This document shows positions 28,442 through 43,287 of a stretch of DNA of 64,000 nucleotides, piece after piece. The notes under the pieces were generated by a model. It made no database searches. It saw nothing but the letters and a program-made list of their open reading frames with translations, and had not been told where the DNA came from. This DNA comes from Candidatus Saccharibacteria bacterium UBA6224 (lineage in GTDB: Bacteria; Patescibacteriota; Saccharimonadia; Saccharimonadales; UBA4665). How positions within the stretch are numbered: the first letter of the stretch is position 1; the number at the start of each line of letters is the position of its first letter. A program made the translations under genes and the position numbers. The stretch covers positions 34,054 to 98,053 of the forward strand of contig DJWS01000008.1 in NCBI GenBank assembly GCA_002441585.1, read 5' to 3'.

Positions 28442-28934
28442 GCAGCGGCCGGGTTTAGTGCTACCGCCGTTAGTCGTCGGCGTCGCTGATATCATGCGGC
28501 TTAGGCGCGAGCTTGATGCTTTGTATGAATACTTGCACCAAGCGGCCCTGCGCGAGATTCCGGCCGATCAGCTGAAGTTACCCAAGACCAGTCGCATACT
28601 CGACGAGCTGGCATTGGCCAACAAGATCAATCTGCTCGATCGCGACCAGTTCGAACGCGTAGCGACAGAATTGGAGCGTATCCAGGACACGGCGCCCCAG
28701 ATACACATATCATTCTCGACCGACCCGTCCTCGGCTTTCGTGGGTAAGATTGTCGATTGGCTACGTCAAAACGTCCACCCTGGTTTATTGATACAGATCG
28801 GGCTGCAGCCGACGTTGGCGGCCGGTTGTCTGGTCCGGACCACCAACAAACAATTTGATTTAAGTTTGAAACAGCACTTCAAGGCGGCCCGGCCGATGCT
28901 GGTCAAGAAACTGCAGGAAGGTTTGCCGGCATGA
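28431..28934 (+). CDS. atpH: ATP synthase delta/OSCP-like subunit (divergent)
   Basis: The C-terminal pattern [28 protein letters not shown] parallels delta (..liGG..v.vgd...D.S....l). Overlaps both the b and alpha genes. Confidence 0.5.
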
Positions 28935-30702
28935 GTGCCGATAATCGACACTACGAACGCCTGGTTGCTGCCGGTAAGCCCGTCGGCGAGGTTGTTGCCG
29001 TCGATCGCTTCCTGATTCGCGTCCGCGGCTTGCACCCGGTCAATACCCATGCACTTGTCATGTTCGCCGATGGCACCAAGGGTCTTGTCCATCACGTGCT
29101 GGAGGATTACGTAATCGTTCTTCATTTGGGCACAAGCAATATCGTGCCTGGCATGACCGTCGTTCAGCAGCACGATGAACTGGTTAGCAAGGTCGGCAAG
29201 GATTTCATCGGTCGAGTCATATCGGTCAACGGCGAGCCACTTGACGGTGGCGAGCCTATCGGTGCTGATGCCGTCGCGCCGGTCTTCCACAATGCTCCTA
29301 AGTTGTTCGAGCGCCAGGCGCTAGATACCCAGCTTGAGACAGGCATCATGATATTGGACGAGCTTTTCCCGCTGGTCCGGGGTCAGCGCATGGCTATCTT
29401 GGGCGACAGCAAGGCCGGTAAGACTACCATGGCGCTGCAACTGGCGCTAAACCAGAAGAACACCGACGTCATCAGCGTGTATGTCCTGATTGCCAAGCGC
29501 CGCAGTGATGTCGACGCCCTTATTAGCCGCCTCCAAGCCAACAATGCCCTAGAATCGGCCATCGTCATCGTCTCGACAGCCTTCGAATCGTTGGTCATGA
29601 GTTATCTGGCGCCTTATGTCGGCTGTGCCATCGCCGAATATCTCTGGCAGCAGTGCGACCGTGATGTCTTGATCGTCTACGACGACCTGACCAGTCATGC
29701 CCAGGCATATCGAGAAATCTCGCTATTGGCTGGAACCAGCCCGGGTCGCGACAGCTACCCTGGTGATATGTTTTATTCGCACTCCTCACTACTGGAGCGT
29801 GCCGGACGAATTTCACGCAACCAAAAAACACTTACCGCCCTGCCAATCGTGCTGGCCAACGACGGTGATATAACCGCTTTCTTGCCGACCAACGTCATGT
29901 CTATTACTGACGGTCAGTGGATATTGGACATGGCTATCTTCAAGGATACTATGCGCCCGGCCGTCAGCGCTGGACTGAGTGTTACTCGTATTGGTGGTGT
30001 CGGCCAGAACGACAAACAAAAGGAACTGGCCGCCCAAACTATCAAGGTGCTCAATGCTTACCGCCAGGCCCAGGAATATTCCCGCTTCGGTTCCGAGTTG
30101 TCCGATGAGGCCAAGCGTACGCTGCACATCGGTGCCCAGCTGTACAAGTTGATGAACCAAGCCCCCGACGAGACATACTCCATCCTACAACAGACGGCGA
30201 TGTTCGATATCGTACTTAATGAGAGTGGCGACCAGGTGATAGACGTGCCAGTTATGAAAGAAGAGGCCAAGAAACTGCTCAAAGAGGGCAAGTACACCGA
30301 TCACGATTCATTCACCGAGGCGCTGCGCAAGGTCTGTCACATTGCCCCACCGACGCCCGCAGAGTCGATTGATGAAGGGGTAGCCGAGGCTCCAAAATCT
30401 GCCGAACCCGACTCGTCTTCTAGCGCCAAGGGTGATACCAAGACCGATGCAGCCGATAAGTCAAAGGACGAAGCCGGAAATGCTGACAAATCAGAAGAGC
30501 CGGAGCAATCCAAGCCTGAAGATGCCAAATCTGATGAAAGCCAAGGAGCATCGGGTACCATGCTTCCAACGCCACCCGGTCAAGAAGTGCATCCGGACAA
30601 ACCGGATGCCCCAGCATCGACCGAATCCAACGAAGCTGAAGACGCTACTCACGAGGACCATGACAAAGAGTCAGCCGATAAGCAGCACGAGGAAGCCCAC
30701 CG

Positions 30703-30706
<4 letters not shown>
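28931..30706 (+). CDS. atpA: ATP synthase alpha subunit with ~110-aa acidic C-terminal extension
   Basis: [53 protein letters not shown]. The tail is rich in D/E/K/S/P. Confidence 0.88.
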
Positions 30707-33210: not shown

Positions 33211-34203
33211 CTATCCCAGGACGATGTAGTCAAAACCGAATGAACTGCTGGCGGGTGCGGCATTGGTCGTACAAACACTAAAGCTGCTGCTTGTCCGGTT
33301 GACGTAATAACCCAAGGATCCAGCTGCCGAACCGATAGGCGTGACAACGACGTGGGGCGTGCTGCTGAAGGCGCTAGAAAAGTTCACGGTGATGAAACAG
33401 CCAGCTCCAGGGCTGCTGCCGGTGTTAATCTTAATGGAACCGGACGTATCAGACCCGCTGACGGATGTCGTTCCGCCGCCACCAAGTGCCGATCCGCTGC
33501 TGCGCGAAGGTGTTGCGCCGCCGGCCACGATGTGATGTGTCAGAGTCAAGTTACTGCTGAGCTGGAGCGATCCGGTGGTAATCCGGCTGACCGATAGCCC
33601 GCCGTTGAAAGTTGTACTGCCATTGACGCTCAGCGCACCCTGGAGTGTTGTCTGGCCTTGCACGGCCAGGTTATGAGCGACCGATAAATCATTAGAAATA
33701 CTGACGTCCTGCAACACACTCTGCCCGCCGACGTTGATGCCTGTTAGTGACAATTGGTCGCCAACGACCAATCTGCCGGCAACCTCTACGTCACCGCGGA
33801 GTAAGACCGAGCCGTCAAAAATGGCGTTGCTCTGTACGGTCAAAACTTGCTTGCTGTCGCCGACCGAGACATCGCTGTTGGCCAACTGCTTCAGGCTGTC
33901 AGTGGACAGGGATTGGGTTTTGATATCGCCGCTTCTGACGGTGTCTTTCTTGGTATTAAGATAATAAATCCCGCCACCACTACCCGCTAGCACCAGCAAG
34001 AAGATGAATGACAATAAATATATATTGACGTGGGATAACAGCGCGCCGAATCCGCCGCGCTTGAACCGCGCCGCCGGCCGCTCGCTCGGTGCCGCAGGTT
34101 GACTGTCGGTCGAAGAAGTGGAAGCTTGCTGTGGGGCGTCACTGGCTGGCGCTTCGAGCGATTCTTCCTCGTCCGGATTGTTGGGGGTAGGGTTTTGATC
34201 CAT
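33211..34203 (-). CDS. membrane-anchored protein with beta-helix-like repeat region (hypothetical)
   Basis: Acidic/Pro-rich N-terminus, one TM (IYLLSFIFLLVLAG), a repetitive V/L-x-G-x-L/V segment (bactofilin/polymer-like repeats), and a C-terminal Ser/Gly-rich domain. Confidence 0.55.
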   Translation of the reverse strand: MDQNPTPNNPDEEESLEAPASDAPQQASTSSTDSQPAAPSERPAARFKRGGFGALLSHVNIYLLSFIFLLVLAGSGGGIYYLNTKKDTVRSGDIKTQSLSTDSLKQLANSDVSVGDSKQVLTVQSNAIFDGSVLLRGDVEVAGRLVVGDQLSLTGINVGGQSVLQDVSISNDLSVAHNLAVQGQTTLQGALSVNGSTTFNGGLSVSRITTGSLQLSSNLTLTHHIVAGGATPSRSSGSALGGGGTTSVSGSDTSGSIKINTGSSPGAGCFITVNFSSAFSSTPHVVVTPIGSAAGSLGYYVNRTSSSFSVCTTNAAPASSSFGFDYIVLG

Positions 34204-34306
34204 GCTTGACTAATTACTCTTGTGCTTACTGTACATGATACAGCACCCGGGCGCTAAGCGTAAACGGATTGCCATCATTAGCTGTACAGGCTACAATGGC
34301 ACTACA

Positions 34307-35821
34307 ATGTTCCGAACAAAAACGCGAATCAAGAGATGGTTGAGTCTGGCGGCGCTAGCTTGCCTCGTCGCATTGGCGCCGGTCATGAGCGTGAGGGCGG
34401 TTTGCGACCCCAATGCCCAGACTTGCTCGAACAATTATCAAGTGACCGAATCGTTCTTTGGGGCGGGCGGCAGCCAAAACGACACATGCTCTGCCACCTA
34501 TTGCGCCAAGCAATCGGTCGGTGCCCTAGGGGTCGGACACACCGGCAGTTTCAATAGCTACCAGGGGGGTGTACTCGGTGATACGGCACCAGCGGCCTAT
34601 TGGCGCATGGGTGAGCTAACCGGTACGAACATGTTTGATATGACCGGCAACGGCCACAGCGGAACCTACTCGGGCGGATTCACGCTAGGTGCCACCGGCA
34701 TTCCCGCCATATCGGACGACTCAGCGGTTACCTTCAACGGTACTAGCGGCCTGAGCACGGTAGCCTACAACTCTGCCCTCGATTACAACTCCAGTGCCAC
34801 GCAGACGATAGAGCTGTGGTACAAGGGTACTCAAACTAGTTCGACCAATACCAAATCGGCCGTCCCGGGCTTGATTACCGCGAATACAGATGGCAGCAAC
34901 CAAAAATTCGTGGTCGGCTTGCTAACCAGCGGGGCGGTCTCGGTTGGCTACGGTACGGCCTATGCCGGCGTCAATGGTTCTACGGCAGTCAACGACGATG
35001 CTTGGCACCAAATCATCTGCACCATAGATTATTCCGGCGGATCGGCCGATATCGTCTTGTATGTCGATGGCACCGTGGATGCCTCGGGCACGGTCGCCAT
35101 GGACGGCGGTACGGGTTCGCCATCGATTACCATAGCCCAGAACCCGCAGGCCAGCGGTGGCGATGCCTACACGACCGGCACAATCGACGAGGTGGCGATT
35201 TACGGCAAAGTGTTGTCGCCCCAGCAGGTCACCAGTCATTACAAAGCTGGCACCACAGGCATCGGTTATCAGGCACAGGGCGGCTTCAATACCGATCGGT
35301 GGCCTTCACTGGAATTCATAGTGAATACCCCATCGGTCAATGTAGGAATCTTGAGTTCGGCCGAGACTCACGTCGGAACGGCGGAGTTCCAGGTCAAATC
35401 GTACTTGGCGCAGGGCTATCAAGTTCGCACCGAATCGGTAGGGCCGACAAGCGGTGGTCATACTTTCAGCTCCCCAGCCTCGCCAACCGCTAGTGCCGTA
35501 GGCACCGAGCAGTTCGGTATGAACATAGCTGCCAACTCTTGCCCCGGCACCGCACCGGGATCAGGTAGTGGTAGCTGCTCAGGTTCTTTGGGCCAGAGCC
35601 CATCACAAGAACCTGATGCTAGCTTTAGCTATGGTGTCGCAGCTCCCAACTACAACACGCCAGACTTATACAAATACGCCAACGGCGATACGATCGCTCT
35701 GTCCAACAGCAGCTCAGGTACCACGGTCTACACAATTAGCTACATCTTCAATATCACTGCAACTACCCCAGCCGGCACCTATACCATGAACCAAGATCTA
35801 GTCACTACCAGCACCTTCTAG
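34307..35821 (+). CDS. secreted protein: Cys-rich N-terminus, LamG (concanavalin-like) insert, pilin-like C-terminal domain ending ...PAGTYTMNQDLVTTSTF
   Basis: Signal peptide from ATG 34307, with TACAAT 34292-34297 lying 9 nt upstream. LamG pattern AYWRMGE..D.TGNGHSGTY...TIELWYK...DEVAIYGKVLS. Confidence 0.65.
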   Translation: MFRTKTRIKRWLSLAALACLVALAPVMSVRAVCDPNAQTCSNNYQVTESFFGAGGSQNDTCSATYCAKQSVGALGVGHTGSFNSYQGGVLGDTAPAAYWRMGELTGTNMFDMTGNGHSGTYSGGFTLGATGIPAISDDSAVTFNGTSGLSTVAYNSALDYNSSATQTIELWYKGTQTSSTNTKSAVPGLITANTDGSNQKFVVGLLTSGAVSVGYGTAYAGVNGSTAVNDDAWHQIICTIDYSGGSADIVLYVDGTVDASGTVAMDGGTGSPSITIAQNPQASGGDAYTTGTIDEVAIYGKVLSPQQVTSHYKAGTTGIGYQAQGGFNTDRWPSLEFIVNTPSVNVGILSSAETHVGTAEFQVKSYLAQGYQVRTESVGPTSGGHTFSSPASPTASAVGTEQFGMNIAANSCPGTAPGSGSGSCSGSLGQSPSQEPDASFSYGVAAPNYNTPDLYKYANGDTIALSNSSSGTTVYTISYIFNITATTPAGTYTMNQDLVTTSTF

Positions 35822-35940
35822 GCGGCTGTGGATAACTAGGCAGTAATATTGGCACAAAAGTATTGCACACGTAACCACTAGCGTGATATATTCACCTCAG
35901 GAATAACCCAAAACAAATAGTCGTAACAGGAGAAATAGAA

Positions 35941-37071
35941 ATGAAAAACATAAGAAGTGCTTTGCAGCGACCCCTGCATGCCATAGCCGCCCTGGCGTTT
36001 ATGCTGGGTACCGCAGGGGCTGCAGTATTGCCGGGGTTGGCCTCTGCCTACGGCAGCGTGAGTAGCCGTGAAATCAAGATAAGCTCGTCAGTACCCGGCG
36101 CCACCGGCGTTTCATACGCGGTTACGTTTACTCCAACAACGACAGCCCAAGAACTGATTGTCGACTTTTGTGGAGATACACCTCTGATTGGGGCAACTTG
36201 TGCGTTTGCGGGAGCATCTGTCCCGAACGTTGCAAGTGCAGTCGCTTCTACGGGTACACTTACTACACCTGGCACGGGTACGCCCAAGCACACTCTTCGT
36301 GTGACGGGCCTAACCATGACGGCGGCAACTCCATACACTATCACATTCACTGGCATGCAAAACCCGTCGGGTACGCAATCCTTCTACGCACGTATCCTTA
36401 CCTATGCCACGGGAAATTCATCGCAATACGTCCAGGCTGACACCACTGGTGCTGCAACCACTATCGGTGCCAATGTGGTCGATGCTGGCGGTATTGCACT
36501 CAGTACTGCCGCCACTATTAGCGTGACCGCACGCGTCATGGAGTCACTGAGCTTCTGCGTTTACAGTACCGCATGCGGTGACGTTCCAGCCGTCGAGATT
36601 GGTTCTGGCTCGCCTCCGGTCATTGATAGCTTGGCTGTCTATACGAACACCACTACACCGCTTAACTTCAGTCTCTCATCTAACGCCTCAAGTGGCGTAG
36701 TCATACGCCTCAAGGGTGGAATCCTCACAAGTGGTGCTAACAACATACCAGCAGTAAACGCAGGTGGTGGTACGGCAGGTGCTATCACTGCGGGTACGGC
36801 AGCCTTTGGCGTCCAGGTCCCGGCCACTACTGCAGGCGCAGTCGGTCAGGTAGATGCTGACGCCAACTACAGTGCCGCCTCCGGTTACGGTTTCGATACT
36901 ACGTCCGCCGACAACGTAACCACCACGTATGGCGATGTCTTCTGTGACACGAACAGCGCCCCACTAAACACTGCAATCGTGCCTATAACATACGGCGCAA
37001 CTGCAAACATCACCACGCCAGCCGGTGTCTACACTGCAACTCACCAACTGATTGCAACCGGCACGTTCTAA
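35941..37071 (+). CDS. secreted two-domain protein, paralog of 37088-38146; ends ...PAGVYTATHQLIATGTF
   Basis: AGGAG RBS and signal peptide. Shares DFCGDTPLIGATC with its paralog (FCDDTPLVGQPC). Confidence 0.65.
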   Translation: MKNIRSALQRPLHAIAALAFMLGTAGAAVLPGLASAYGSVSSREIKISSSVPGATGVSYAVTFTPTTTAQELIVDFCGDTPLIGATCAFAGASVPNVASAVASTGTLTTPGTGTPKHTLRVTGLTMTAATPYTITFTGMQNPSGTQSFYARILTYATGNSSQYVQADTTGAATTIGANVVDAGGIALSTAATISVTARVMESLSFCVYSTACGDVPAVEIGSGSPPVIDSLAVYTNTTTPLNFSLSSNASSGVVIRLKGGILTSGANNIPAVNAGGGTAGAITAGTAAFGVQVPATTAGAVGQVDADANYSAASGYGFDTTSADNVTTTYGDVFCDTNSAPLNTAIVPITYGATANITTPAGVYTATHQLIATGTF

Positions 37072-37087
37072 CACGTACAATAAGGAT

Positions 37088-38146
37088 ATGCGATTTGGTC
37101 GGCTTCTTCCTCGCCGCATACTCCCAGTCATACTCTTGGTCTCGCTTCTTCTCCTGGGAGCGAGGCCATTGCTGTTTCGCGCTCAGGCGGCTACATTTCC
37201 CAAGCGATCAGTTCAGCTCGGTAGTATTGTCGCGGGCGATACATCAAGCTACAAATTCGCCTTCATTGTTACTACACCAGGTGCCCAAGTGGGCTCTATC
37301 CGTTTCCAATTTTGCGATGATACTCCGCTCGTCGGGCAGCCGTGCAATCCGCCGACGGGCTTCGATGCATCCGGCGCAGTTCTCGTGGACCAGCAGAACA
37401 ATGCCGGGTTTACGATTGGCGCAGGTACGAATGCAAACACGATCGTCATCGGCCGCACACCGGCGATCGCGTCGATTGGTATGTCAACATATGATTTCTC
37501 CGATATCGTAAACCCGGCGTCTAGTGGCACATATTTCGTCAGGGTAGAAACGTTCGGCAGCAATAATGCCACGGGCCCTCATGTCGACTATGGTGGACTT
37601 GCGTTTGCCATGACAGAGCAAGTGACCATCAGTGCTGAAGTCCCGCCATTTCTACTTTTTTGCAACGGTGTAACGATAACTGGTTTTGATTGCACTACCG
37701 CTACCGGAGATTATATAAACTTCGGGGAATTCTCCACTTCGTCACCCCGGACCGGGACTACCCAGATGCTATTAGCAACTAATGCCGACGGAGGGTACAG
37801 CGTGACCGTACAGGGAACGACAATGCTCTCGGGAGTCAATAGTATACCGGCACTGAACGTTAATGACGTCTCACGCCCAGGCACAAGCCAGTTCGGCATC
37901 AATCTTCGTAATAACTCCGATCCTAATGTAGGCTCCGATGTCGCAGGGCCAGGAGTGGCCTCGCCGCGCCCTAACTATGCTATCCAAAATAGATACCGCT
38001 TCGTGTCGGGGGAGCAGATTGCATTCTCCACCACATCTGATGATTACCGCAAATACACTGTGACATATCTCGTGAATATCGCGAACGGCCAGCCAGCCGG
38101 CATATACGTCAGCACGCTTACCTACACGGCCCTAGCAACATTTTGA
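37088..38146 (+). CDS. secreted two-domain protein, paralog of 35941-37071; ends ...PAGIYVSTLTYTALATF
   Basis: Start at MRFGRLLP (AAGGA RBS) with a signal peptide. The inner block INFGEF...NADGGYSV.V.G...SG.NSIPAL...TSQFGINL is conserved with its neighbours. Confidence 0.65.
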   Translation: MRFGRLLPRRILPVILLVSLLLLGARPLLFRAQAATFPKRSVQLGSIVAGDTSSYKFAFIVTTPGAQVGSIRFQFCDDTPLVGQPCNPPTGFDASGAVLVDQQNNAGFTIGAGTNANTIVIGRTPAIASIGMSTYDFSDIVNPASSGTYFVRVETFGSNNATGPHVDYGGLAFAMTEQVTISAEVPPFLLFCNGVTITGFDCTTATGDYINFGEFSTSSPRTGTTQMLLATNADGGYSVTVQGTTMLSGVNSIPALNVNDVSRPGTSQFGINLRNNSDPNVGSDVAGPGVASPRPNYAIQNRYRFVSGEQIAFSTTSDDYRKYTVTYLVNIANGQPAGIYVSTLTYTALATF

Positions 38147-38214
38147 GCATATTGTGCAACCACTACCGTTTTGATACTATAAGTCCAACGTCTTAAGAGG
38201 GAATTAATAGGAAC

Positions 38215-39216
38215 ATGAAAAAACTTCAACAATTGCTCATGGCTGGGCTGGTATTAGGTGCTGCGGCTGTATTGGTAATTTCTGCTAACGTTTCGGCGGC
38301 AACAAGCAGTGGTAACGGGATGCGAGTATCACCCGTAAGAACTGACTTGGTCATGCAGCCGGGAGATTCTAAAACGATTAGTGTTTATGTCCAGAATGTC
38401 ACTAACGGTACAGAAAACTTGAGGGTCATCGCCAACGATTTTGTCGCCAGCGAAGATGAGAGTGGGGCTCCGGCGCTGCTTTTGAACGGAGAGGCCAACG
38501 ATAGGCACGGGCTAAAGAAATACATCTCAGCACCAGGAACATTGACCATTGAGGCCGGAAAGCAGAAGGAAGTCAGGGTGACGATTTCCATACCTAAGGG
38601 CTTGCCTGGCGGTGGCTACTATGGCGCCATTCGATTCGCACCGGCATCGACGAGCAGCACAGAAAACGCCAACGTCTCCCTCTCAGGAAGTGTCGGCTCG
38701 TTGATTCTTGTGAGAGTTCCTGGTGATGTCACGGAAAAAATGTCACTAGTCAGCTTCGATGCTAGGTCTAAAAACTCCAAGACCCAGGAAGATTCTGCCC
38801 GAACGGTCTTTACGTCCGGAAAGAATGTATGGGCTACGGTGCGTCTTCGCAATGAAGGCAACATCCAAGAGCAGCCATTCGGTAAGATTCTCTTCAAGAA
38901 AGGCAACACTACTCTAGGCACCTATGAGTTGAACGCCGGGGACCAGCCAGCTAATGTTCTACCAGATAGCATTAGGAAATTCAGTATTCAGCTCAAGGAC
39001 GTGGGCTCTTTTGGCAAATACACGCTCGAAGGTAATTTCGGCTATGGTACGGCAGGACAACTACTTTCAGCTAAAACCACATTCTACGTTATACCGGTAT
39101 ACATGATTTTTCTTGGTATCGGCATCGTAGCACTCATTCTGTTCCTTATCTTCGGTTTGCCGCGCTTGATCCGCAACTACAACAAGCGGGTGCTTCGTAA
39201 AGCCGGCCGTCGCTAA
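38215..39216 (+). CDS. DUF916/DUF3324-like cell-surface protein with C-terminal TM anchor
   Basis: Signal peptide. Two Ig-like modules (SPVRTDLVMQPGDSKTISVYVQN...IPKGLPGGGYYGAIRF; then LRNEGNIQEQPFGKILF...LPDSIRKFSIQL...FGKYTLEG). C-terminal TM plus a basic tail (RNYNKRVLRKAGRR). Confidence 0.6.
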   Translation: MKKLQQLLMAGLVLGAAAVLVISANVSAATSSGNGMRVSPVRTDLVMQPGDSKTISVYVQNVTNGTENLRVIANDFVASEDESGAPALLLNGEANDRHGLKKYISAPGTLTIEAGKQKEVRVTISIPKGLPGGGYYGAIRFAPASTSSTENANVSLSGSVGSLILVRVPGDVTEKMSLVSFDARSKNSKTQEDSARTVFTSGKNVWATVRLRNEGNIQEQPFGKILFKKGNTTLGTYELNAGDQPANVLPDSIRKFSIQLKDVGSFGKYTLEGNFGYGTAGQLLSAKTTFYVIPVYMIFLGIGIVALILFLIFGLPRLIRNYNKRVLRKAGRR

Positions 39217-39286
39217 CGAGGATGCCTTGGGGTGGTGGTCGTGAGTCCTTGTCGCCAGCCATCATCTCGGTTATGGTAGTAATAAG

Positions 39287-40192
39287 ATGATTACCACCCG
39301 ACGCATAGTCGCCTGTTGCCGCTCAGCTACGTTGGTGTTGCTGCTGGGACTTTTGGTGGCGCCGATTGGCTCGGTAGCCGCGATAGGCTCACCAGATCCA
39401 GAGCAGGGCGGGTCTGTCGGTCTGGAAGGACGTATCTCATCACCGCCGCCCACCCAAGCCGCCAGCATAACCACACCACGTAATGGTCAAGTCTTTGATT
39501 CGTCACCGATAACCGTAGCCGGCCTGTGTAAGACGGATTTGCTGGTCAAGGTATTTGCCAACAACGTGTTCGTCGGCTCGGTCCTATGTAAGAACGGCAG
39601 TTACTCTCTGCAGGTCGGACTGTTTAGTGGCCGGAATGACCTGGTGGCCCGGGTTTATGACAATCTCGATCAGGCGGGGCCCGATTCCAACCTTGTCAGC
39701 GTGACGTTCAACGATGCTAATTATGCGGAGTTCGGCACGCAACTGACCCTGACCAGCAATTACGCCCGTCGTGGCGCCAACCCCGGCTCTACCTTGACTT
39801 GGCCCATCGTCTTGAGCGGTGGCTCTCCACCCTATGCTATCAGTATCGACTGGGGCGACTCATCTGGTGCTCAGCTGCTTAGCCAATCATTTGCCGGCAA
39901 CATCACACTTTCACATGTCTACGAGACGGCTGGTATCTACACCGTAGTCATAAAGGCGACCGATCGCAACAAAAGTACTGCCTATCTTCAGGTCGTGGGT
40001 GTCGCCAACGGCGAGGCGAAGCAAGCCGCCACTGACACAGGCACGACTAACAAGGTCAGCGTAGCCCCGGAATGGTACTGGTTCTTGCCAATCGTGCCGC
40101 TGCTGATTGTGGCATTCTGGCTGGGTGGACGCAACGAACTGTATGTCATTCGTCGTCGCTTGGACCAAGTCCGCAACGCCAGCCGCGGTTGA
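39287..40192 (+). CDS. secreted Ig-like + PKD-domain protein with C-terminal TM anchor
   Basis: The PKD-like segment is ISIDWGDSSG...LSHVYETAGIYTVVIKATD. C-terminal helix WFLPIVPLLIVAFWLGG. Confidence 0.6.
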   Translation: MITTRRIVACCRSATLVLLLGLLVAPIGSVAAIGSPDPEQGGSVGLEGRISSPPPTQAASITTPRNGQVFDSSPITVAGLCKTDLLVKVFANNVFVGSVLCKNGSYSLQVGLFSGRNDLVARVYDNLDQAGPDSNLVSVTFNDANYAEFGTQLTLTSNYARRGANPGSTLTWPIVLSGGSPPYAISIDWGDSSGAQLLSQSFAGNITLSHVYETAGIYTVVIKATDRNKSTAYLQVVGVANGEAKQAATDTGTTNKVSVAPEWYWFLPIVPLLIVAFWLGGRNELYVIRRRLDQVRNASRG

Positions 40193-41397: not shown

Positions 41398-43287
41398 ATG
41401 ACAGCCCAAGAGATTCGCCAAAAATACCTAGATTTTTGTAAGCAGAACGGCCACGCTATAATCGCGCGGGCGCCGCTGGTGCCCAAGGACGATCCGACCA
41501 CACTGTTTACCGGCAGTGGCATGCAGGCCTTGATGCCATACTTGCTTGGCCAAGAACATCCGAACGGCAAGCGCCTGGCCGACAGCCAGACATGCTTGCG
41601 CGCCCAGGATATCGAGGAGATCGGTGACAATCGCCACACGACGTTCTTTGAGATGCTGGGCAATTGGAGCTTGGGCGATTACTTCAAGGCCGATCAGCTG
41701 CCTTGGTTCTTTGACTTTTTGACTGAGGTCGTCGGACTAGACCCAAATCGCTTGTACGTCACCTGTTTTATGGGTGACGAAGCCAACGGCATCCCCCGTG
41801 ACGAAGAAAGCGCCAAGATTTGGAAGGACTTGTTCGCCGCCAAGGGTATCATCGCCGAAACACAGGATATCGGCAGCGAAGCCGATGGCGCCAAAAAAGG
41901 CATGGAGCCACACGCCCGTATCTTCTATTATGACGCCAGCAAGAACTGGTGGTGGCGCGGCGACAAAATTAACGACATGCCAGAGGGCGAGCCGGGCGGA
42001 CCGGACAGCGAAGTTTTTTACGAGTTCGATTATATCGTTCACGATCCGAAATATGGCGAAAAGTGTCATCCTAACTGCGATTGCGGCCGCTACATGGAAA
42101 TCGGTAACAGTGTGTTTATGGAATATGTCAAAACTGCTCAAGGCTTCGCCAAGTTACCTAAGCAGAACGTCGACTTTGGCGGTGGACTGGAGCGCATTGC
42201 CGCAGCTGCCATAGATGACCCGGACGTGTTCAAGATCAGCGTGATGAAACCCATAGTGACCAAGCTGGAAGAGATTTCCGGCAAAAATTACGAAAGCCAC
42301 ACCGAAAGCATGCGCGTAATCGCTGATCACTTGCGGGCCGCTACGTTCCTGGCAGTCGACGGTGTGGTGCCGAGCAACAAAGAACAGGGCTACGTCATGC
42401 GCCGCTTGCTCCGCCGGGCTATTCGCTTTGCCTTTGAGCTGGGCGTCGAGCAGAACTTTTTGGAGCAAATCGTCCCGGTGATTGCTGACTTGTATCACGC
42501 TGATTTCCCCGAAGTAGCCGAGCACCGCGAAGAAGTCATTGCTGTGCTGGTGAAGGAAGAAAAAGTCTTCCGCCAGACACTCCGCAAAGGCATCCGCGAA
42601 CTTGAGAAGCTCAAAGAGAATGGCTTGACGGGTTCTGATTTGTTCAAGCTCTACGACACCTATGGTTTTCCGGTGGAACTCAGTGTTGAGGAAGCATTTA
42701 AGCAAGAAATTACCGTACCCGACAACTGGCGCGAAGAGTTCGATGCGCACATGGCCGAGCAGCGACAGCGCTCGCAGACGGCAGCCAAAGGCGTATTCAA
42801 GGGCGGATTGGGCGGCAAGACCGACCAGCACAAAAAATACCACACCGCCACGCACCTGATGTATCAGAGCTTGCGCACCGTCTTGGGCGACCACGTGATT
42901 CAACACGGTTCTAACATTACCGAGGAGCGCTTGCGCTTCGATTTCAGCCACACCGACAAAATGACGCCGGAACAAATCAAGCAGGTCGAAGACATGGTCA
43001 ACGAACAAATCGACAAAGACTTGGTAGTGACATGGGAAGAGCACCCGACCAAGGAGGCTATCGAAGGATTACACGTACTCGGCGCCTTTGGCGATCGCTA
43101 CGGTGATGTGGTGAAATGCTATCGCATGCAAGCCAAAGACTCAGACACGCCATTCAGTTTTGAAATTTGCGGTGGCCCGCATGTCGACCATACCGCGCAG
43201 TTGGCTGAAGGCGGCAAACGATTCAAGATCCTCAAGGAAGAATCTTCTAGCGCCGGTATCCGTCGCATCAAAGCCGTGTTGCAATAA
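41398..43287 (+). CDS. alaS: alanyl-tRNA synthetase, short form (catalytic + tRNA-recognition + editing, no C-Ala domain)
   Basis: DDPTLLFTGSGM-type motif (DDPTTLFTGSGMQ), FFEMLGNWSLGDYFK, editing HTATHL and CGGPHV. The protein is 629 aa. Confidence 0.9.
   Translation: MTAQEIRQKYLDFCKQNGHAIIARAPLVPKDDPTTLFTGSGMQALMPYLLGQEHPNGKRLADSQTCLRAQDIEEIGDNRHTTFFEMLGNWSLGDYFKADQLPWFFDFLTEVVGLDPNRLYVTCFMGDEANGIPRDEESAKIWKDLFAAKGIIAETQDIGSEADGAKKGMEPHARIFYYDASKNWWWRGDKINDMPEGEPGGPDSEVFYEFDYIVHDPKYGEKCHPNCDCGRYMEIGNSVFMEYVKTAQGFAKLPKQNVDFGGGLERIAAAAIDDPDVFKISVMKPIVTKLEEISGKNYESHTESMRVIADHLRAATFLAVDGVVPSNKEQGYVMRRLLRRAIRFAFELGVEQNFLEQIVPVIADLYHADFPEVAEHREEVIAVLVKEEKVFRQTLRKGIRELEKLKENGLTGSDLFKLYDTYGFPVELSVEEAFKQEITVPDNWREEFDAHMAEQRQRSQTAAKGVFKGGLGGKTDQHKKYHTATHLMYQSLRTVLGDHVIQHGSNITEERLRFDFSHTDKMTPEQIKQVEDMVNEQIDKDLVVTWEEHPTKEAIEGLHVLGAFGDRYGDVVKCYRMQAKDSDTPFSFEICGGPHVDHTAQLAEGGKRFKILKEESSSAGIRRIKAVLQ

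Follow-up and report, generated by a model that had tools for sequence, protein, structure and literature searches.

A five-gene cluster for secreted and membrane-anchored proteins

Five open reading frames (ORF1 to ORF5) reside one after another in the 64,000-nucleotide stretch of DNA analysed here (the window), which derives from contig DJWS01000008.1 of Candidatus Saccharibacteria bacterium UBA6224. The products of the first three are secreted and have a C-terminal domain and motif in common, and those of the last two carry a C-terminal membrane anchor. Inspection of the sequences is enough to recognize the signal peptides and, in ORF4 and ORF5, the C-terminal transmembrane (TM) helices. 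An initial annotation, made from the letters of the DNA, had described this cluster as a candidate novel system for assembling surface fibres or adhesins, and its gene coordinates and the three C-termini it quoted are exact. Our analyses indicate that the cluster very probably is a compact Pam-pilus operon of Saccharimonadales, in which ORF1 would serve as a lectin-bearing tip, ORF2 as the shaft, ORF3 as an adaptor, ORF4 as a chaperone and ORF5 as the terminator and anchor. The relevant features are listed in Table 1.

Assignment to the Pam pilus family

Domain models were taken from NCBIfam release 20 and from Pfam, the latter used with its gathering scores. ORF1 is matched in two stretches by the equivalog model NF058579 for PamT, a pilus protein of the candidate phyla radiation (CPR) type, at 245 bits against a cut-off of 240. 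ORF5 is identified as PamR by the equivalog model NF058578, with 387 bits against a cut-off of 300. For NF058581, the model of the Pam pilin C-terminal domain (CTD), the cut-off of 55 bits is exceeded by ORF1 (136 bits), ORF2 (68.4 bits) and ORF3 (162 bits). Hidden Markov models (HMMs) of any single class recovered all three CTD proteins and no other protein of the window, which has one chaperone; a second chaperone, extra pilins and a PamR paralogue were all sought in the window and none was found.

The Pam system has been described in a preprint (bioRxiv 10.64898/2026.03.03.709456), in which thin filaments of Candidatus Mycosynbacter amalyticus were solved by electron cryomicroscopy (cryo-EM) at 2.8 and 3.6 Å and shown to consist of the pilins PamA and PamB. 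Within these filaments, each subunit uses its linker to complete the C-terminal domain of its neighbour. Two PapD/FimC-like chaperones, each ending in a TM helix (PamC and PamD), are encoded in the operon as well, together with an additional pilin (PamE) and PamT, a single-domain tip subunit that lacks a donor strand. PamR is RbmA-like; its N-terminal strand is predicted to stop fibre growth, and its TM helix to serve as the anchor. ATP synthase genes and a conserved gene for a ‘tail fibre-like protein’ lie beside the operon; the filaments are long, and their proteins are among the most abundant in the cell. The preprint states that the way in which Pam pili contact the host envelope is not known, and it mentions neither lectins nor adhesins, WxL or DUF916. 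Filament formation and linker-strand exchange are taken from the orthologous M. amalyticus system, and family membership, domain architectures, the fold and homology of the chaperone, conserved motifs and synteny were computed in the present study.

The window cluster shares with the M. amalyticus operon its protein families, pilins composed of an N-terminal domain (NTD), a linker and a CTD, paired cysteines as in PamA and PamB, a TM-anchored two-domain chaperone, and a PamR that starts with a strand and has a TM helix near its C-terminus. It also shares the neighbouring ATP synthase and tail-fibre-like genes and a host within the CPR/Saccharimonadia. It differs in its compact five-gene form and in its PamT, which is not single-domain and instead carries a LamG domain of 241 amino acids (aa). 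By gene position (the accession order in the preprint is T-A-E-D-R), ORF3 would correspond to PamE and ORF4 to PamD. The proposal that the cluster encodes fibre subunits and a tip protein is therefore upheld by models above cut-off and by orthologues that are filamentous by cryo-EM, whereas its novelty is not: the system had already been named and modelled (10.64898/2026.03.03.709456; NF058578, NF058579, NF058581). What the present locus adds to the published description is a variant with a lectin-bearing tip and the homology of its chaperone to WxLIP proteins.

Conservation of the operon among relatives was evaluated by a scan with ORF5, limited to one genome per species, which yielded 52 loci, all from Saccharibacteria/Saccharimonadales or from unclassified bacterial metagenome-assembled genomes. 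Wherever the contig is long enough, the genes occur in the order atpAGDC, tail-fibre-like gene (on the opposite strand), PamT, variable-class pilins, conserved-class pilin, chaperone, PamR, mnmA and alaS; the single exception is one locus in which the chaperone gene is inverted. Variable-class pilins are 360-480 aa long and occur in 0-4 copies per locus, usually 1-3. The conserved-class pilin (about 350 aa) is present once in each locus covering its position, always directly upstream of the chaperone gene. The Pam context, with ATP synthase and tail-fibre-like genes adjoining the operon in CPR genomes, is thus found at these loci. With about 50 related species carrying the same operon, the window locus is an ordinary example of the system.

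Table 1. Positions of the pilus genes, their notable segments and two upstream features in the window.
Feature	Position	Strand	Evidence
ORF1, PamT-type tip subunit with nested LamG, 504 aa	34307..35821	+	NF058579, NF058581, alignment to short PamTs
ORF1 LamG/concanavalin-A-like insertion, aa 80-320	34544..35266	+	Pfam PF13385
ORF1 acceptor domain (Pam pilin C-terminal type), last residues TTPAGTYTMNQDLVTTSTF	35267..35818	+	NF058581, BLAST, HMMs, C-terminal motif
ORF2, variable-class shaft pilin (NTD, linker, CTD), 376 aa	35941..37071	+	NF058581; NTD and CTD HMM matches
ORF2 linker, putative donor strand TISVTARVMESLSFC, aa 192-206	36514..36558	+	Family consensus
ORF3, conserved-class pilin, PamE-like by position, 352 aa	37088..38146	+	NF058581; AlphaFold2
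ORF3 linker, putative donor strand VTISAEVPPFLLFC, aa 179-192	37622..37663	+	Conservation
ORF4, membrane-anchored chaperone, PamC/PamD counterpart, 333 aa	38215..39216	+	PF06030, AlphaFold2, Foldseek, hhalign
ORF4 G1-like strand LSGSVGSLILVRVPG, aa 156-170	38680..38724	+	Follows disordered loop aa 147-158
ORF4 C-terminal TM helix, then basic tail	39088..39159	+	Model helix 295-331; sequence
ORF5, PamR, RbmA-like tandem Ig/FnIII, 301 aa	39287..40192	+	NF058578; weak Pfam PKD matches
ORF5 mature N-terminal donor-like strand GGSVGLEGRISSPPP, aa 41-55	39407..39451	+	Family consensus
ORF5 C-terminal TM helix, WYWFLPIVPLLIVAFWLGG then basic tail	40073..40129	+	Sequence
Tail-fibre-like protein, 330 aa, N-terminal TM anchor aa 60-82	33211..34203	-	ORF; divergent from ORF1
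Promoter-like site TTGCCA-17-TACAAT	34269..34297	+	Consensus match only

Pilin architecture and the location of the donor strand

ORF2 and ORF3 are paralogous over their full lengths, as had been proposed (BLAST, 26% identity over 365 aa, E 6e-14). ORF1 has the last ~163 aa in common with ORF3 (28% identity, E 1e-11), and its BLAST alignment with ORF2 is limited to the last 46 aa; the HMMs nonetheless join all three. An internal block described as common to the three proteins holds only in part, because its ‘SG-x-N-x-IPA’ and ‘GGY’ elements occur in ORF2 and ORF3 or in ORF3 only. ORF2 has a signal peptide (aa 1-36), and its gene is preceded by a clear GGAG Shine-Dalgarno sequence 8 nucleotides upstream. 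For ORF3, which is predicted to be the proximal adaptor subunit, AlphaFold2 produced a model with a predicted local distance difference test (pLDDT) score of 91.1 and a predicted template modelling (pTM) score of 0.54, with NTD strands within aa 40-176, a linker strand at 189-194 and CTD strands within 221-350. The low pTM score fits two loosely coupled domains.

The most conserved stretch of both pilin classes is the linker. Its consensus is [IL]-T-[IV]-T-A-[RK]-V-x-E-x-L-x-F-C in the variable class, where the A is present in 47 and the V in all 52 of 52 sequences, and [LVI]-x-[VI]-S-A-E-V-P-P-[YF]-L-x-F-C in the conserved class, where V185, P186, P187 and C192 (ORF3 numbering) are invariant or nearly so. 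In the window cluster, a motif of the donor type, h-x-h-x-[A/G]-x-[V/I], can be recognized in the ORF2 linker, in the ORF3 linker and at the start of the mature ORF5 protein. PamR proteins have the N-terminal consensus S-[VTI]-G-[LIV]-[EQ]-G-x-[IV]-x-S-P-P-P (all 51 sequences have G45 and P55), which follows the same h-x-h-x-small-x-h pattern as the pilin linkers. The motif is absent from ORF1 and other PamTs, as judged by alignment to short PamTs. Such a distribution is expected under donor-strand exchange, in which shaft subunits and the terminator must supply a strand but the tip need not.

The C-terminal motif was counted in 121 homologous proteins, comprising 118 from related loci and the three from the window. 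Gly at position -14 is found in all 121 and Tyr at -12 in 120, and the final residue is F or Y in every case, a degree of conservation far beyond chance. Pilins of chaperone-usher systems have similar landmarks, namely a conserved Gly some 14 residues before the C-terminus and an aromatic residue close to the end of the chain. Given this extreme conservation and the fact that the motif forms the last beta-strand, it might be supposed, as the initial annotation implied, that this strand is itself the donor or edge strand that complements a neighbouring subunit. We consider this most improbable. Solved Pam filaments donate the linker between NTD and CTD, and the CTD is the acceptor (10.64898/2026.03.03.709456); moreover, a separate donor-type motif is present in the linkers and in PamR. 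Because the C-terminal motif is equally conserved in the PamT tip, which donates nothing and has no subunit to donate to, it is instead the signature of the acceptor domain rather than an exchanged strand.

Searches of PDB sequences, in a set without the Pam structures, with ORF2, ORF3 and two family profiles gave nothing relevant, and no WxL chain was matched. The full-length ORF3 model gave only generic two-Ig-domain matches in Foldseek (integrins, MSCRAMMs, PapG, RbmA and BslA), with no WxL chain among the best 50 matches listed. As a separate observation, the NTD of the conserved class (ORF3 aa ~46-165) bears a weak, colinear resemblance to Pfam DUF2808 (PF10989), which matched 20 of 60 family members (best E 2.8e-4), all below the gathering score. 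DUF2808 is thus a possible relative from outside the Pam family.

A tip subunit with a nested LamG domain

The ORF1 product begins with a signal peptide (aa 1-31) and the Cys-rich N-terminal segment of PamT (aa 32-79), and it lacks a donor strand. The LamG domain recognized in the initial annotation (PF13385, E 8.6e-17) is placed between this segment and the C-terminal acceptor domain. In nearly all relatives, PamT has 245-290 aa and no LamG domain, the longest ORFs being 314 and 358 aa. LamG was encountered at the same PamT site in metagenomic proteins P0241-P0245 and P0249 and in locus L061, which carries two tandem LamG-PamT copies with divergent LamG domains. Among the best 150 matches from a search of 1.84 billion representatives, there are at least three full-length LamG-PamT clusters and about 30 short PamTs, and the LamG part otherwise resembles the repeats of giant multi-LamG proteins. 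The insertion is therefore rare, and wherever genomic context is available the LamG-PamT gene is the first of a Pam operon. Across four distant full-length homologues, the LamG domains are 30-46% identical and the acceptor domains 55-66%.

From its domain composition, ORF1 is predicted to be a FimH-like two-domain tip adhesin, in agreement with the earlier suggestion that the LamG protein sits at a fibre tip, and its LamG domain probably recognizes a glycan on the host surface. As in FimH and PapG, a lectin-type domain is joined to a donor-less acceptor domain and encoded by the first gene of the operon. The ORF1 lectin differs from theirs in that it is LamG/concanavalin-A-like and nested in PamT after the Cys-rich segment, rather than fused at the N-terminus.

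Membership of LamG in the concanavalin-A-like lectin/glucanase superfamily also accommodates another function, namely a Csc-like complex for capturing or degrading polysaccharide in which LamG is a carbohydrate-binding or glucanase module and not a pilus adhesin. The earliest proposal for the role of Csc/WxL clusters was carbohydrate utilization (PMC1534035). However, no glycoside hydrolase family match passes threshold, and the context is that of a Pam operon. Furthermore, since nearly all related operons lack LamG, the domain is accessory to a conserved fibre, and we give a polysaccharide-processing complex hardly any credence.

Two side observations concern the N-terminal half of PamT. In the ORF1 homologue P0265, the position taken by LamG is occupied by a non-LamG insertion of another kind (~180 aa), and this site may be a hot spot for the insertion of tip domains. 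In addition, the consensus of the Cys-rich segment (34400-34543), ‘CSSNYQVNEAFFGAGG’, is similar to ‘CASS..EAFFGQG’, from the CDR3/J region of T-cell receptor beta chains (E 0.56). This likeness is probably due to chance, though both are G-strand-like FGxG bulges.

The chaperone is a homologue of WxLIP proteins

The ORF4 product matches DUF916 (PF06030) at 31.9 bits, above the gathering score of 27.3, as do nearly all of its homologues, which NCBI names DUF916 proteins. The second domain that had been suggested, DUF3324, is unmatched by Pfam, yet profile-profile alignment to WxLIP proteins spans both domains. The AlphaFold2 model (pLDDT 87.2) comprises two beta-sandwiches in a PapD/CfaA-like two-domain fold and a C-terminal helix. 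Its best Foldseek matches are the Enterococcus faecium WxLIP structures 9i1y and 9i25 (2026; free and bound to a long WxL protein; E 4e-12), followed by CfaA (~1e-10), CsuC, Caf1M, FimC and PapD, with E values of 1e-10 to 3e-7. Pfam models of the PapD family (PapD_N/PapD_C) do not match ORF4. A profile of the ORF4 family searched against PDB sequences gave EfmWxLIP1 as the sole match below E 1 (E 0.026).

For direct comparison, WxL clusters were drawn from Enterococcus, Bacillus, Lactobacillaceae, Lactococcus and Listeria plasmids. Alignment of the ORF4 family with eight WxLIPs by hhalign gave a probability of 99.1% and an E value of 5e-19 over 240 columns covering both domains. These data firmly establish true homology between ORF4 and the WxLIPs, the DUF916/DUF3324 proteins encoded in Firmicutes WxL clusters, a relationship of the Pam chaperone not previously pointed out; the literature searched contained no link between WxL or DUF916 and CPR. 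The initial view of a membrane-anchored tandem Ig-like protein acting as the assembly factor thus agrees with the chaperone fold and the structural matches.

The ORF4 model also contains a candidate capping element. A loop at aa 147-158 with pLDDT below 50 is followed by a strand at aa 160-168, and residues L156, S159, V160, S162, L165, V168 and G170 are invariant in the family. The segment at aa 156-170 is predicted to cap the pilin groove, and in the model this loop-then-strand arrangement has the layout of the F1-G1 region of chaperone-usher chaperones. According to a prediction by Hassan et al. (PMC10599100), a hairpin loop of WxLIP that is otherwise disordered turns into a strand, occupies a gap in the WxL sandwich and there runs parallel to a WxL strand, which amounts to donor-strand complementation under another name.

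Pam pili share several properties with the chaperone-usher pili (Pap, Fim, CFA/I, Csu and Caf1). On the mechanism proposed for Pam, as in chaperone-usher pili, the subunit has an incomplete Ig-like domain to which a strand is supplied first by a two-domain chaperone and then by the following subunit, and the fibre starts from a tip subunit that has no donor strand. The chaperone folds are similar by Foldseek. The Pam chaperone, however, is membrane-anchored rather than soluble, and there is neither usher nor outer membrane. Likewise, the Pam donor is an internal linker rather than an N-terminal extension, the pilins have an extra NTD, and the fibre is linear rather than coiled (10.64898/2026.03.03.709456). 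Neither the pilus genes nor those flanking them resemble an usher gene; no usher model was run over the remainder of the window. In agreement with the initial annotation, signals of other surface systems are also missing by motif search: none of the six proteins at the locus has an LPXTG-like motif, and a crude regular-expression search of all window ORFs returned neither the sortase TLxTC motif nor a type IV prepilin N-terminus. The N-termini are ordinary Sec signal peptides and not of the class III type (G-F-T-L-I-E).

Relationship to WxL clusters

The likeness to the WxL/Csc clusters of Bacillota extends beyond homology over both chaperone domains, because the WxLIPs share with ORF4 the C-terminal TM anchor and the disordered loop. 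The gene logic is also the same, with a protein carrying a host-binding head, small partners and then a TM-anchored Ig tandem. The two differ in that a Csc cluster has at least two proteins with a WxL domain (PF13731, two W-x-L motifs) and the Pam cluster has none, and in that the Pam cluster lacks the small LPXTG protein (CscD) that is frequent, though not universal, in Csc clusters. Finally, the Pam partners are filament-forming pilins of two domains that carry their donor strand internally; for WxL proteins, binding to peptidoglycan in single copies has been proposed.

This parallel layout, together with the genuine WxLIP homology of ORF4, raises the alternative of a non-polymerizing complex of the WxL type, in which ORF4 holds one copy each of ORF1 to ORF3 at the surface and no fibre is formed; WxL clusters have indeed been described as surface complexes and not as pili (PMC10599100, PMC9772566). 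We judge such a complex unlikely, because orthologues form long, highly abundant filaments solved by cryo-EM (10.64898/2026.03.03.709456), ORF2 and ORF3 have the NTD-linker-CTD architecture of pilins with a conserved donor motif, and a dedicated terminator and anchor, PamR, is encoded. In addition, the Pfam WxL model (PF13731), the search for which the initial annotation had called, matches neither ORF1-3 nor any of the 80 Pam proteins scanned.

The W-x-L motifs themselves are absent from the proteins of the cluster, in which Tyr takes the place of Trp. Comparison of the conserved-class CTD with WxL domains by hhalign gave P 0.002-0.004 (score 24-26, against a maximum of 17.3 in 40 column shuffles), and the landmarks GYxVxV and GWxLxV, as well as YxxTLTY and YxxTLTW, are colinear in the alignment. 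The CTDs of PamT and the variable-class pilins gave negative results against 10 or 24 WxL domains (P 0.15-0.7), and enlarging the WxL profile brought no improvement. Reciprocal searches of HMMs against ORFs were not significant, though their best matches were in register. Homology between the pilin CTD and the WxL domain is therefore no more than suggestive. Thus, the link to WxL clusters drawn in the initial annotation holds for the chaperone, by PF06030, Foldseek and hhalign, and is unproven for the pilin domain. The stronger notion, of a WxL system that merely lost its W-x-L motifs, is likewise unproven, with P ~0.002 for one of three pilin classes and nothing for the other two. Because the case for WxL homology of the pilin domain is weak, the locus is filed under Pam and not under WxL.

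A common origin nevertheless deserves mention as a tentative possibility, which we hold to be somewhat less probable than its opposite. Pam pili and WxL/Csc clusters could be two branches of an old, usher-less family of strand-complementation systems that serve single-membrane envelopes and use a membrane-anchored DUF916/DUF3324 chaperone, with the Pam CTD being a homologue of the WxL domain in which Tyr replaces Trp.

Several observations were made on the WxL side of this comparison. A cluster on a plasmid of Bacillus cereus FM1 (L063:3165-9002) encodes a legume-lectin-domain protein, an LPXTG protein, three WxL proteins and a WxLIP, and follows the same head-to-tail logic as LamG-PamT, pilins and chaperone. 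Some annotated WxL-domain proteins have no Trp in the second motif, such as L059:5217-5822 on pXO1 (‘YESKLTYSIVTGP’) and L060:5270-5971 from Listeria (‘YETTVTVAVVQGP’), and by sequence these motifs stand closer to the Pam C-terminal motif. Pairs of WxL and WxLIP genes also occur in regions resembling conjugation or type IV secretion system loci in B. anthracis pXO1 (L059), B. cereus pJ7_1 (L069), B. thuringiensis (L068) and a Listeria plasmid (L060). Their neighbours encode CpaB, CpaF/VirB11-type ATPases, a type IV secretion coupling protein and a thioester-domain adhesin, which hints at a role in mating-pair adhesion.

A model for pilus assembly

Assembly of the Pam pilus from these components could proceed as follows. 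All five products would be exported by Sec, and ORF4, held in the membrane by its C-terminal helix, would work as a chaperone of the PapD/WxLIP type, its strand at aa 156-170 temporarily filling the open groove of each pilin CTD. By donor-strand exchange, the linker strand between the NTD and CTD of an incoming pilin would then displace the chaperone strand from the previous subunit. ORF1 would nucleate the distal end as the lectin-bearing tip, the only position it can occupy because it has an acceptor domain and no donor strand. ORF2 units would be added by linker insertion to form the shaft, and ORF3 would follow them as the proximal adaptor. ORF5, the predicted terminator and membrane anchor, would end growth by inserting its N-terminal strand into ORF3, and its TM helix would anchor the fibre. 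The initial annotation had described ORF5 as an Ig/PKD protein with a TM anchor; the helix is evident and the PKD matches are weak. Neither an usher nor an outer membrane would be required.

Several points weigh against this interpretation. LamG domains are also known in non-adhesive roles, and in the closest ORF1 homologue, P0241, it is the CTD and not the LamG domain that is the more divergent part. The PamT score of ORF1 is only 5 bits over the cut-off, because the LamG insertion splits the match; a typical short PamT reaches 318 bits. No NCBIfam Pam model matches ORF4, whose orthology to PamC/PamD is argued from fold, architecture and position. With one chaperone and two linker-bearing pilins, the window operon is simpler than that of M. 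amalyticus, where there are two chaperones and three pilins with a linker (PamA, PamB and PamE), and the order of assembly may therefore differ between the two operons. For the window proteins we infer strand insertion, as well as the order of subunits, the capping strand of ORF4 and the class of ligand bound by LamG. Lastly, the Pam work has the status of a preprint (10.64898/2026.03.03.709456).

Genomic neighbourhood and additional observations

The cluster is flanked on one side by atpAGDC and a divergent gene for a 330-aa membrane protein and on the other by mnmA and alaS. The membrane protein gives weak matches to PHROG tail-fibre families (E 4e-4), and its gene is found in the same place and orientation in ~43 related loci, which is every contig reaching that far. 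This tail-fibre-like gene is therefore a conserved neighbour of the pilus operon. Between it and ORF1 lies a promoter-like site whose -10-like TACAAT ends 9 nucleotides upstream of the ORF1 ATG. Because of this short distance and the absence of a visible Shine-Dalgarno sequence, the ORF1 transcript may be leaderless. A TTG codon at 34220 is unlikely to be the true start, since 29 residues would then precede the signal peptide.

Neighbouring genes show further peculiarities. The atpA gene (28931-30706, plus strand) encodes an ATP synthase alpha subunit of 591 aa with an acidic, Lys/Ser-rich, low-complexity C-terminal tail of ~110 aa; complete atpA ORFs in relatives have about 475-533 aa. The alaS product (41398-43287, plus strand) is an alanyl-tRNA synthetase of 629 aa, and it is ~630 aa in all related loci. 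Judged by these sequences, the enzymes of the window and its relatives appear to lack the usual C-terminal part of bacterial alanyl-tRNA synthetases.

Several relatives, and not the window, carry a PamR paralogue (343-407 aa, mostly ~30% identity) a few kilobases downstream of alaS (L004:18110-19261, L006:15830-17053, and also L008, L015, L029, L039 and L052). The two copies scanned with NF058578 score 174-185 bits, below the cut-off, and such paralogues may belong to a second Pam module. Some variable-class pilins (L004:3692-7672 and others) score 21-40 bits in NF058581, and automatic annotation will therefore miss them.

Implications

A Pam tip that bears a LamG domain is a concrete candidate for a component with which ultrasmall CPR episymbionts recognize their hosts. 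Homology between the Pam chaperone and WxLIP connects the CPR pilus with the Firmicutes WxL clusters, which have been described as involved in virulence (PMC10599100), and suggests that WxL clusters also work by strand complementation. If the two systems are indeed branches of one family, the WxL proteins of enterococci, listeriae and lactobacilli would owe their attachment or assembly to donor-strand complementation, and the lectin-headed first genes, LamG-PamT in one case and the legume-lectin protein of B. cereus in the other, would encode tip or host-binding subunits in both.

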